A stretch of 64,000 nucleotides of DNA from Nitrososphaerales archaeon (GCA_965197925.1 CBDAOC010000020.1:96001-160000), one strand, 5' to 3'. Positions 2,611 through 5,207 are shown, counted from the first letter of the stretch. A program made the numbers and translations. The notes: generated by a model from the letters alone, not told the origin.

Positions 2611-3243
2611 ATGATATCTTTCAATAATTATGTAAGAGCAACAATAGCGGTTGCAATTGTGAGCTTATTAATCATGCCAAACGTTCTACTGGATAGTAAA
2701 GCTCAACCAATTACGAAGTACCTTGAGGTGGAAATAAGAGAGAATGACTATAACTCATTGGAAAAGAAGATTATACTTCGTAATAACATGCTTCAGCCAA
2801 TTAAGCAGATAAGACTATCGTTGTCTCCAGAGCTCGCAGGTGGTAATTACCTGTTGAGTGAATATGCCTTTAAACAGATCGAAGATTTTGAAATTATAAC
2901 AATAAAGAAGAATGAGGGATTCAATGGAGAACCTCTGACAGGCTATATGATACTTTCTGCTGCCAATACTGAAGAACCTGCTAAATTGATAGTAAATGAA
3001 GGAGATGATGACTTTACAATTGAACTTCCTATACAAAAGCCTCTGTATACATATAAGGAATTAAGGTTGATCTATATGAGCTGTTTTGATGAGTTGAAAT
3101 CCAAGATGAACAACGCAATACAAATAAATGAAGTCGATGAAATGCAAGCAGATTACTTCAACAAGAATCCATTTGGAAACAAGATTCGTGAATTCTTATT
3201 TGATCAGATTGTAAGTTGTAGTTCATTGAAACAGACTATGTAA
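2611..3243 (+). CDS. Hypothetical secreted protein
   Basis: 210-aa ORF with an N-terminal hydrophobic signal-like segment and no family motif that I recognise. Confidence 0.6.
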   Translation: MISFNNYVRATIAVAIVSLLIMPNVLLDSKAQPITKYLEVEIRENDYNSLEKKIILRNNMLQPIKQIRLSLSPELAGGNYLLSEYAFKQIEDFEIITIKKNEGFNGEPLTGYMILSAANTEEPAKLIVNEGDDDFTIELPIQKPLYTYKELRLIYMSCFDELKSKMNNAIQINEVDEMQADYFNKNPFGNKIREFLFDQIVSCSSLKQTM

Positions 3244-3435
3244 TGTTGTATGTGGTTGGTTCAATGATGAAGAAGGCTAAATGAACCGATAAATTGATTT
3301 GAAATAACATGTAAGGATTTTATGTATTGAGGGTGGACAACGAAATATGAGATTGACAATGACCAGGTTTTCATGAATCTCCACATTTTATCAGTTCAAT
3401 ATGATATGAAAATACTGTATTGAGTTACTTTTGTG

Positions 3436-3448
3436 CAAAGATTTAATA
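3436..3448 (+). promoter_or_regulatory. BRE/TATA-like promoter of the tRNA-iMet gene
   Basis: CAAAGATTTAATA ends about 29 bp upstream of tRNA position 1 (3477). Confidence 0.65.
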
Positions 3449-3476
3449 GCTATCTAACCTGCTCATCTAAACTTGT

Positions 3477-3669
3477 AGCGGGGACTCCGTAGCGAGGTTA
3501 ACTACCCTACAAGGGTGGGGAAGCCAGGTCAACCCAAATGGGGCCGAATCCCGGCGGGCTCATAATCAACTTAATGAGAGACCCGCAGAGCGGTGATCGA
3601 ATTTGGTTCGCAGATTCGACCGCAAGTTCAAGATGGGAGAAATCTCTCAGGAAAGTCCACCCCCCGCTA
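3477..3669 (+). tRNA. Initiator tRNA-Met(CAT) with five introns. Exons: 3477-3480, 3513-3531, 3549-3564, 3581-3595, 3626-3632, 3656-3669
   Basis: The joined exons give AGCGGGGTGGGGAAGCCAGGTCATCCCGGCGGGCTCATAACCCGCAGAGCGGTGGTTCAAGTCCACCCCCCGCTA (75 nt). This has an A1-U72 acceptor stem AGCGGGG/CCCCGCT, D-stem GGGA/TCCC, anticodon stem GCGGG/CCCGC with loop CTCATAA, and T-stem GGTGG/CCACC with loop TTCAAGT. Each junction is BHB-like. Confidence 0.93.
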
Positions 3670-3842
3670 CTGCTTTCCAAACGAATAGAATCTATCCATT
3701 TTTCTAAAGTAATGGAATTGCTTTTTCCATCAATGGTTTAATATTACCAAAGGAACCATAATAATCAAACGCGTTAATTCCTGAACTCCCTCACAATTAA
3801 CCTCTCCTGATTTTCAAAAAACGTATGGATGCGACTAAATCT

Positions 3843-5207
3843 TTAGGAAAGTTTCACTACAACATCCATTTGAATTGAATTATATGATCCGAATCTACAA
3901 TACCAATTTGGCTTTAAAACCCATTCCCATCCATATTTTTCTATTCCATATCTCTGTATTGGTTTTGTCAGATGCCTTTGTGCTTTAGGCAATGGAATGT
4001 ACAATCCTTCTTTGACATCCCTTGATATTTCTGTGCTTATTTTTTGTATTGTGCGTTCCCTTACACCACAACTTTCACATTTGTATCCCTTATTAAACCC
4101 GGCAGATTTGAGTCTCTTACCACATCTTTTGCATTGTGGATTTATGTAACTTAGCTTGTGGGCAAGTTGCAGAATTTTGATATATTCTAGATTAATCACT
4201 TTTGGATGCTTCATAGTAGCTTTTCGTACTCCACCACCAATTTCAATTAAATCACTAATGCTCAACCTTTGTGACAATTGACTTAATCCAGTAGGCTCAT
4301 AAACCGCACAAAAGGCTATACCGTTTTGTGTTTTCAGGTTAAAGAATGTGTGTCCCCCCTTGATCGTGTAAGGAAGATTTTCAACCGTCCCTTTCATAAA
4401 ACCAGATGTATGTGGTTTCAGCCTAGACAGATCAAGTTCATGTGTTAAATGCATGTTTGTACCTTGATTAGTTCTAAAGATAATATAACCTTCAAGCTCT
4501 TCTTGTATATCGAGCATAAGAAATGCCCGTAACAAAATGTTATCTGCTTCTCCTCTAATCCCGCAAAATATTGGGTCGGGTCCTCTAGGCGTGATCAGAA
4601 CTCGTTCGTTCTTGTAATCATAATTGTTGTATGTATTTGGGTAGGTTCGTTCGTTCATTGAAATGATTTGCATTTTTGATATCTCTCTAGGCTTTCCATG
4701 GTTTGCATATTTCCTATACGCTATTATCTCGAATGTATAATCATGGAGTTCAGCTCCTATAGCAGATAATGCACCTACAATACCTCGACCATTTCCGAGT
4801 TCGTATGTATAGATTCCATGAGTTTGCGCAACCTTCCTTGCGAACTTTCTACTTATGACATCGTGATATGCCTTCTTCGTCAATTCCTTTACATCAATCG
4901 GAATAGTTTTACCAGAATAAAATACAACGCAAGGGTTGGCGCCAGTGAATGTATGAGAATTTTTTTCTACTAAGTTTTTTACACCTTTCACTACTATATT
5001 CTCATTATTTACCTCTACGTGCAAGGCAATTGCACCATTACCTCTGGTTTTCCATGGAATGTTAGGGTTAAGCCTAACCAGTAATGGATAATCTAGAAAC
5101 TTCGCATTTAGCTTCAGTAAAAAATCAACTATCTTGTAAGCTAAATAAGTAGTACACATACCTTGTCGAGAGTCAGTATCATCCAGACCAATATGCAATA
5201 ATGGCAT
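3843..5207 (-). CDS. tiaS: tRNA(Ile2) 2-agmatinylcytidine synthetase
   Basis: IGLDDTDS..GMCTT, LVRLNPNIPWKTRGNGA, TNQGT, an OB-fold region and a C-terminal zinc ribbon. Confidence 0.95.
   Translation of the reverse strand: MPLLHIGLDDTDSRQGMCTTYLAYKIVDFLLKLNAKFLDYPLLVRLNPNIPWKTRGNGAIALHVEVNNENIVVKGVKNLVEKNSHTFTGANPCVVFYSGKTIPIDVKELTKKAYHDVISRKFARKVAQTHGIYTYELGNGRGIVGALSAIGAELHDYTFEIIAYRKYANHGKPREISKMQIISMNERTYPNTYNNYDYKNERVLITPRGPDPIFCGIRGEADNILLRAFLMLDIQEELEGYIIFRTNQGTNMHLTHELDLSRLKPHTSGFMKGTVENLPYTIKGGHTFFNLKTQNGIAFCAVYEPTGLSQLSQRLSISDLIEIGGGVRKATMKHPKVINLEYIKILQLAHKLSYINPQCKRCGKRLKSAGFNKGYKCESCGVRERTIQKISTEISRDVKEGLYIPLPKAQRHLTKPIQRYGIEKYGWEWVLKPNWYCRFGSYNSIQMDVVVKLS

Follow-up and report, generated by a model that had tools for sequence, protein, structure and literature searches.

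In the peer-reviewed literature, three introns have been the ceiling for a single transfer RNA (tRNA) gene. The archaeal sections of the tRNAscan-SE 2.0 paper state that archaeal tRNA genes carry "up to three" introns (PMC8450103), and the sections on nuclear tRNA genes in a report on Cyanidioschyzon merolae likewise give three as the maximum (PMC3728597). The tRNAscan-SE 2.0 paper also treats 107 non-canonical tRNA introns of Thaumarchaeota, with a clade-specific model of the bulge-helix-bulge (BHB) motif (PMC8450103). A higher number is given in the accessible text of a preprint on Asgard archaea dated 15 October 2026, which describes 2.2 intervening sequences per gene in three families and "up to five in a single gene" (10.64898/2026.10.13.758758), and apart from this preprint our full-text literature search found no archaeal tRNA gene with four or five introns. 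Here we describe a locus in a 64,000-nt stretch of the genome of a Nitrososphaerales archaeon (GCA_965197925.1, CBDAOC010000020.1:96001-160000), which we call the window and whose coordinates are used throughout. Positions 3491 (or 3477) to 3669 of the window very probably make up a single functional initiator tRNA-Met gene with five BHB-type introns, which are predicted to be spliced as set out below. An initial annotation of the locus had proposed such a gene and is borne out by the spliced cloverleaf, a de novo search and the relatives; its statement that the multi-intron tRNAs described in Thermoproteales carry at most three introns agrees with the peer-reviewed reports. Its suggestion that five would be unprecedented does not survive the Asgard preprint, and its framing in terms of the Thermoproteales has to be replaced, the family in question being one of the Nitrososphaerales.

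Archaeal initiator tRNAs are recognized by a CAU anticodon, an A1-U72 pair and three consecutive G-C pairs at positions 29-31/39-41. When the five segments originally proposed as introns (32, 17, 16, 30 and 23 nt, or 118 of 193 nt) are removed from 3477-3669, the exons of 4, 19, 16, 15, 7 and 14 nt that remain (3477-3480, followed by exons 2 to 6 of Table 1) join to a 75-mer that ARAGORN calls as tRNA-Met(CAT) and that displays all of these hallmarks, with G29-31 paired to C39-41 in an anticodon stem of five pairs. All of its 7+4+5+5 stem pairs are standard, with no mismatch among the 21 by ARAGORN and by our own cloverleaf check, and it has a 10-nt D loop with GG, T8, A14, T33, R37, G53-C61 and the T loop TTCAAGT. 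Removal of the introns thus restores a canonical cloverleaf, as is expected of archaeal BHB introns, and the coordinates, lengths, central helices and cut positions of the five segments were all re-derived as claimed. The introns follow linear nt 4, 23, 39, 54 and 61 of the mature tRNA; their positions in Sprinzl numbering (Table 1) were converted by hand. A CCA end is not encoded after the discriminator A73 at 3669.

The standard finders ARAGORN and Rfam/Infernal miss this gene, as the initial annotation had anticipated. ARAGORN reports no tRNA in the raw 64-kb window, Rfam/Infernal yields no match in the window at the gathering threshold, nor a tRNA match at the locus when the limit is relaxed to E<=10, and the locus is not among the 70 RF00005 matches of the whole genome. 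Three unrelated chance matches to Rfam occur near the locus at E<=10. The gene is recovered by an intron-tolerant search of our own, in which introns are listed by motif geometry alone (a 4-bp helix in which 3 or more pairs form, two 3-nt bulges each cut after its second nt, and a further helix adjoining on the inner or outer side) and any path through them that obeys the cloverleaf rules is then accepted. Applied to 600 nt around the locus and not told the introns, this search returned the same five-intron initiator with no stem mismatches, and all 10 solutions at the locus have five or six introns, none fewer; it likewise recovered the gene in four related genomes (G007, G004, G008 and G001). 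The genome-wide scan skipped seven 5-kb chunks, five of them on contig C16 and one each on C17 and C15. Counts were taken with a strict filter only, which asks for a mature GC >=0.52, introns <=75 nt, no more than 2 stem mismatches and at least two of three conserved bases; 30 loci (31 rows) of the real genome, contig C16 excepted, pass it, as against none in a control of 1.83 Mb made from reversed or complemented contig C20. A loose filter gave multi-intron "tRNAs" at 4886 loci, with spurious solutions in the thousands, and was not used for counts.

The comparison of aligned sequences from relatives is, in our reading, the decisive evidence that the gene structure is real and more than the product of chance. 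Among 41 genomes searched, the locus was found in seven of the eight other genomes of the same family, the one lacking it being 84% complete, and the eight family genes, that of the window's own genome (G000) included, carry 5, 5, 5, 5, 4, 4, 3 and 2 introns. G007, G004 and G008 have the same five introns as the window, G001 lacks exactly intron 2 (17 nt, 3532-3548), and G006 lacks exactly introns 3 and 4. Introns 1 and 4 are both absent from G003, which has a different 15-nt intron after nt 14, and from G002, which has kept only two introns; intron 4 is thereby missing from three of the family genes and intron 1 from two. The G003 gene (L007, ~1560-1600) has two introns in its D loop, the 15-nt one just mentioned and a 17-nt one at 21/22, with a 9-nt exon between them. 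The intron-5 site is occupied in all eight family genes, by sequences of differing length, and in two of five genes from other families. An intron at 52/53 occurs in five of the eight family genes and in none of those five others, which are initiator genes from five other families of the order and carry 2-3 introns at 4/5, in the D loop, at 37/38 or at 59/60. Within the family at least seven different sites have been used (4/5, 14/15, about 17-19, 21/22, 37/38, 52/53 and 59/60).

Conservation follows the predicted exon boundaries closely. In G007, G004, G008 and G001, respectively, identity to the window is 75/75, 73/75, 75/75 and 74/74 over the exons, as against 88/104, 90/104, 85/104 and 69/88 over the introns and 6/21, 8/21, 8/21 and 10/21 over the trailer, and an identical mature sequence of 75 nt is obtained from G000, G007, G008, G001 and G003. 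The two exon changes in G004 amount to one compensatory pair, 28-42 C-G to A-T (C28A in exon 3 and G42T in exon 4), and the A57G change in the T loop of G006 (exon 5) is matched in the intron-5 helix (TTCG/CGAT). The two central helices that contain a mismatch in the window are fully paired in some relatives, that of intron 2 in G004 (AGGT/GCCT, 4/4) and that of intron 5 in G001 (TTCA/TGAA, 4/4). Intron hairpins covary as well: TGGGAG..CTCTCA of intron 5 is replaced by CGGGAG..CTCTCG in G007 and G008 and by other pairs in G004 and G001, and GGT..ACC of intron 1 by GGC..GCC in G007, G004, G008 and G006.

At each of the five sites a 4-bp helix stands between two opposite 3-nt bulges, both cuts fall after the second nt of the bulge, and the elements follow one another in the same 5' to 3' order, i.e., 4-bp helix, 3-nt bulge with the 5' cut, helix-stacked intron hairpin and 3' bulge. 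The central helices of introns 1 to 5 have 4, 3, 4, 4 and 3 of 4 pairs. The strict hBHBh' form is not seen, since a 5-bp outer exon helix exists at intron 3 only; the other introns have 0-2 outer pairs but an inner hairpin of 3-10 bp. The motifs are therefore of the relaxed HBh' type, a class described in lineages whose endonucleases are heterotetrameric (PMC4090602). Compared with placements of equal length throughout the window, every one of the five motifs scores in the top 0.002-0.23%. The free minimum free energy (MFE) structure of the minimal motif is the expected one for introns 1 (in an 18-nt form considered below), 2, 3 and 4, and for intron 5 the enforced motif and the free MFE differ by no more than 0.5 kcal/mol (-6.9 against -6.4). 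A blastn-short comparison of the five introns and their flanks with the genome gave only self-matches below E=0.1, i.e., no intron paralogues.

Two EndA paralogues, 183 and 189 aa in length, are encoded in the genome at the loci C19:216010 and C19:402879, each with the N- and C-terminal Pfam domains PF02778 and PF01974. In the PDB the first best matches catalytic subunits of crenarchaea (2cv8, 3p1z_B), whereas the nearest to the second is M. jannaschii EndA; by our reading of its sequence, the second paralogue appears to have no catalytic His, as would be expected of a structural subunit. RtcB is encoded at C20:600904-602211 (599.6 bits). Relaxed motifs call for a splicing endonuclease of the heterotetramer or epsilon type and an RNA ligase in the host; a heterotetramer-type endonuclease and a ligase are predicted to be present here. 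As to sequencing runs, a 159-nt contig from an RNA library (X16) is identical to 3520-3678 with introns 2-5 in place, which is compatible with a precursor transcript or with DNA carry-over; contigs of two DNA-type runs from different studies (X1 and X5) contain the whole locus at 100% identity, and a further run (X20) contains a relative's variant only.

Beyond what can be observed directly, i.e., the gene structure, the motif geometry, the contrast in conservation between exons and introns, the presence or absence of introns in relatives and the enzyme genes, we infer a pathway in which transcription would start a few nt downstream of a conserved TATA block. In the local fold of each intron, the exon would pair with the 3' end of the intron in a 4-bp helix, next to which would come a bulge with the 5' cut, a stacked hairpin and a bulge with the 3' cut. 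The endonuclease, composed of one catalytic and one structural EndA paralogue, would cut both bulges and RtcB would join the exons, after which RNase P and a 3' nuclease would trim the ends and CCA would be added to give a tRNA for use in initiation. Because exons 1 and 5 are only 4 and 7 nt long, cleavage and ligation would have to be interleaved, at least for introns 4 and 5, or else the 7-mer would be released.

Genome-wide searches, which followed up the suggestion in the initial annotation to look for another initiator gene, found no other initiator-type tRNA gene in the assembly. Two further GC-rich CAT tRNA genes are encoded separately, one at C19:563274-563383 with two introns and a 5' part resembling tRNA-Ile(GAT), the other at C20:487570-487662 with one intron. 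Neither combines A1-U72 with GGG/CCC, and by similarity they would be tRNA-Ile2(CAU) and elongator tRNA-Met. The CAT tRNA at C16:55264-55339, which lies in a foreign-looking array, has neither of the two features. An uninterrupted GGG-yTCATAA-CCC occurs nowhere in the genome, and the sole GC-rich GGGyTCATA context is that of the initiator locus, which is thus probably the organism's only initiator tRNA gene, with every round of protein synthesis probably depending on five successive RNA-splicing events. A low-GC tRNA-like sequence at C14:7117-7189 (-) has CAT in a seeming 9-nt anticodon loop, a match of 35 bits to Rfam and an acceptor mismatch, and does not combine A1-U72 with GGG/CCC.

Where intron 1 begins is the point on which two versions of the same gene compete. 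GTAGCG occurs twice, at 3475-3480 and 3489-3494, and CTAC is also found twice; because of this duplication, the same mature tRNA results whether exon 1 is 3477-3480, followed by an intron of 32 nt (3481-3512), or 3491-3494, followed by one of 18 nt (3495-3512), and either way the gene has five introns. The initial annotation chose the longer form. Its position, 4/5, and the mature tRNA stand, but the 18-nt form is more likely. In that form the second GTAGCG copy, which is invariant in all six genomes that have intron 1 although its flanks vary, takes part in a clean helix-bulge-hairpin geometry that is the free MFE of the minimal motif and has a motif score of 18 (top 0.034% of placements); the covariation of the intron-1 hairpin also speaks for this form. 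If the first copy is used instead, the 5' cut does not lie in a 3-nt bulge beside the hairpin, the minimal motif folds differently at its MFE (-8.0 against -7.4 kcal/mol enforced), the score drops to 16 (top 0.23%), and G001, whose first copy reads GTGGCG, would begin with G1 and have a G1-U72 pair, whereas the 18-nt form gives A1 there. The first copy also has points in its favour, and we hold the 32-nt intron, with the second GTAGCG inside it, to be the less probable but still quite conceivable version: GTAG/CTAC pairs at 4/4 positions with this copy too, the full-length MFE pairs it with the 3' acceptor strand, and it sits where the 5' end lies in G003, which is without intron 1, at the same distance from the TATA block and with a leader of the usual short length. 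The duplicated 5' end (3475-3483 and 3489-3494) might provide a pair of 5' splice sites that can stand in for each other, or a leader by which the tiny exon 1 is tethered.

Several observations weigh against a functional five-intron gene of either version. Two of the five central helices contain a mismatch, and the outer exon-exon helix is missing from four of the five motifs. The full-length MFE fold forms the intron-2 helix only, with pair probabilities of 0-0.25 for the other central helices; we have not weighed this against splicing because BHB motifs are judged locally. About 11 loci with T arms were not parsed automatically, i.e., the tRNA search was not exhaustive, and an assembly in 20 contigs (98.7% complete) leaves room for an unassembled second initiator gene. 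Finally, the search for spliced reads that had been proposed as a check turned up neither spliced RNA nor junctions in the four sequencing runs, in which assembled contigs cannot reveal a modified tRNA of 75 nt and missing flank coverage in X16 is no evidence; the only record from an RNA library is unspliced and possibly carried-over DNA. Some of these points could mean that the locus is decaying or non-functional, the gene for the working initiator lying in a part of the genome that was not assembled or on a co-resident element; the foreign-looking contig C16 carries a full set of intron-free tRNA genes. We consider this very unlikely, given that across the eight genomes the exons are invariant or changed only by a compensatory pair while introns and flanks drift, that the promoter block is conserved, that the tRNA-Met of C16 lacks the initiator pairs, and that no other candidate emerged from the genome-wide searches. 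The imperfect helices, together with the ease with which a loose filter generates spurious multi-intron "tRNAs", could instead suggest that fewer than five of the introns are true, some being chance insertions retained in the RNA, or that the parse is an artefact of a flexible search. Yet introns 1-4 are each exactly absent from at least one relative that still gives the same mature sequence, the intron-5 site is filled in every family gene but by different-length sequences, the D loop, T stem or T loop would be disrupted if any of the segments stayed in the RNA, the search gave no solution with a smaller number of introns here, and the reversed-sequence control is empty, all of which makes this the least probable account that we considered. 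Five spliced introns remain by far the best reading of the locus. A more ambitious version of it, to which we would give slightly less than an even chance, holds that the sole initiator is made only by way of five endonuclease-ligase cycles on one precursor of 180-190 nt, that the count ties the highest reported and is the first such case found for an initiator tRNA and for Nitrososphaerales, that the gene is a hotspot of ongoing intron gain and loss, and that the exons of 4 and 7 nt would force ordered, coupled cutting and joining.

Table 1. Parts of the five-intron initiator tRNA-Met gene and its surroundings (window coordinates; exon 1 and intron 1 in the preferred form)
Feature	Position	Strand	Remarks
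Putative promoter, purine-rich BRE-like GCAAAG followed by TATA-like TTTAATAG (3442-3449)	3435-3449	+	position and conservation
First copy of the tRNA 5' end (GT-AGCGGGG), exon 1 (3477-3480) or a leader copy upstream of the real exon 1	3475-3483	+	
Exon 1 (AGCG, tRNA positions 1-4)	3491-3494	+	second GTAGCG copy
Intron 1, 18 nt, 4/5 (alternative 3481-3512, 32 nt)	3495-3512	+	GTAG/CTAC, 4/4 pairs
Exon 2, positions 5-21 (rest of acceptor 5' strand, D stem 5' strand, D loop)	3513-3531	+	identical in G007, G004, G008
Intron 2, 17 nt, 21/22 (border of D loop and D stem)	3532-3548	+	AGGT/GCCG, 3/4 pairs; hairpin CCC..GGG
Exon 3 (D stem 3' strand, 26, anticodon stem 5' strand, loop to 37, CAT anticodon)	3549-3564	+	
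Intron 3, 16 nt, canonical 37/38	3565-3580	+	CTCA/TGAG, 4/4 pairs; 5-bp anticodon stem serves as outer helix
Exon 4 (38, anticodon stem 3' strand, variable loop, T stem 49-52)	3581-3595	+	
Intron 4, 30 nt, 52/53 (within T stem)	3596-3625	+	GCGG/CCGC, 4/4 pairs; adjacent hairpin of 8-10 bp
Exon 5, 7 nt (G53 and T loop 54-59)	3626-3632	+	
Intron 5, 23 nt, 59/60 (T loop)	3633-3655	+	TTCA/GGAA, 3/4 pairs; hairpin TGGGAG..CTCTCA
Exon 6 (T60, T stem 3' strand, acceptor 3' strand, discriminator A73)	3656-3669	+	invariant in 7/7 aligned genomes
Trailer CTGCTTTCC with short T run, possible end of the primary transcript	3670-3678	+	RNA-library contig of run X16 stops at 3678

The putative promoter (Table 1) is suggested by its position and conservation. 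Its TATA-like element lies 28-35 nt upstream of 3477, where a TATA box had been placed at ~30 bp, and the block 3440-3455 is identical at 14-16 of 16 positions in G007, G004, G008 and G001 and also aligns in G006 and G003. The trailer, at the other end, may act as a terminator. The locus is intergenic, with an open reading frame (ORF) of 210 aa (2611-3243, +) on one side and a divergent gene of 454 aa (3843-5207, -) on the other. This divergent neighbour is TiaS, with the Pfam domains TiaS_TCKD, TiaS_FLD and TiaS zinc ribbon. TiaS is the enzyme that modifies the CAU anticodon of tRNA-Ile2; a CAU-tRNA gene thus adjoins a CAU-tRNA modifier, the tRNA concerned having initiator and not Ile2 hallmarks.

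Introns are common among the other tRNA genes of this genome. Of 36 host tRNA genes that could be resolved, 9 have no intron, 19 have one, 6 have two, one has three and one, the initiator gene, has five, i.e., ~1.1 introns per gene. The lineage is intron-rich and the initiator gene is its outlier, so that the extensive hidden system of tRNA introns surmised in the initial annotation is borne out in part only. A relaxed rescue of 21 orphan T arms resolved 6 loci, and a further five were read by eye as Arg-TCT with 1 intron, Pro-GGG with 0, Lys-TTT with 2, Leu-TAA with 2 and Ala-GGC with 1; two more are 3' fragments, one is the low-GC CAT tRNA-like sequence on C14, and three have no parse. Since some loci have no parse, five is the maximum among the resolved genes only. 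A T at tRNA position 33 is nearly universal. By eye, tRNA-Pro(GGG) at C18:257068-257143 (-) and tRNA-Ala(GGC) at C20:321462-321540 (-) apparently have C33 in its place, and both were missed by our search, which requires T33. Isolated 3' pieces of tRNA genes that have no 5' half lie at C20:272109 and C18:99374. One corresponds to the 3' part of tRNA-Pro(TGG), whose full gene (C20:267505-267618) is 4.6 kb upstream of it; the other is a copy of the tRNA-Arg(CCG) 3' end. Both resemble attachment sites left over from integrated elements.

The 150-kb contig C16 is of a different character. At ~24-97 kb (L021, L022) it has 28 (ARAGORN) to 32 (Rfam, over the cut-off) intron-free tRNA genes, all of which encode CCA, whereas the host's own tRNA genes have introns and no encoded CCA. 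It also contains giant fn3-repeat ORFs of 1133, 1442 and 3174 aa, and in C16:1-20000 there is no ORF of >=250 aa under translation table 11 or with TAG=Q, as compared to two under table 4. This contig may be a virus or some other foreign element, or it may have been binned into the assembly, whose contamination stands at 5.4%, by mistake.

Initiator tRNA is indispensable and its gene is usually present in a single copy. An initiator gene that needs five splicing events would put all translation initiation under the control of EndA and RtcB, and it sharpens the question of why archaeal tRNA introns persist, be it as protection against integrating elements, as guides for modification or through a neutral ratchet. 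The interest of the gene rests on this essential role, on its exons of 4 and 7 nt and on the natural series of 2 to 5 introns. The family offers a set of genes with 2, 3, 4, 4, 5, 5, 5 and 5 introns, in which alleles with and without a given intron differ exactly by it, for the study of intron gain and loss and of splice order. It may also be that genomes of this group are annotated as having no initiator tRNA and that completeness measures based on tRNAs are biased.

The locus can be set beside systems already described. The Thermoproteales, e.g., Pyrobaculum calidifontis (PMC8450103), share with it several short and closely spaced introns, canonical and non-canonical, as well as BHB motifs and a heterotetramer-type endonuclease; they differ in having up to three introns per gene instead of five, in lineage, and in possessing intron families (cited in 10.64898/2026.10.13.758758), whereas no paralogues of the five introns described here were found elsewhere in the genome. 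Introns of the Thaumarchaeota (PMC8450103) share the order-level lineage and the relaxed kind of motif; initiator genes from five other families of the order contain 2-3 introns, some of them at sites also used here, whereas this family stacks five, including that at 52/53. In C. merolae (PMC3728597), the D arm, position 37/38 and the T loop likewise contain ectopic and multiple BHB-type introns, but the organism is a eukaryote (a red alga), the maximum is three, and ordered removal was demonstrated there by RT-PCR, while splicing is inferred here. The permuted initiator tRNA-Met gene of Thermofilum pendens (PMC4090602) is also a disrupted gene for an essential initiator that needs the BHB machinery; in contrast to such permuted or split genes, the pieces described here are collinear in one transcription unit, with no permutation and no trans-splicing. 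Closest are the genes of the Asgard preprint (10.64898/2026.10.13.758758), which belong to another phylum and in whose accessible text the strings "initiator", "Nitroso" and "Thaumarch" do not occur. These too were found computationally, have up to five introns with BHB-compatible borders, are missed by standard annotation, and show many introns in the D arm, repeated gains and no detected copying between genes. Five introns thus exceed the three of peer-reviewed reports but are matched by that preprint, and since the mechanism is a known one, we regard the gene as an extreme case of the known class of BHB-interrupted archaeal tRNA genes.

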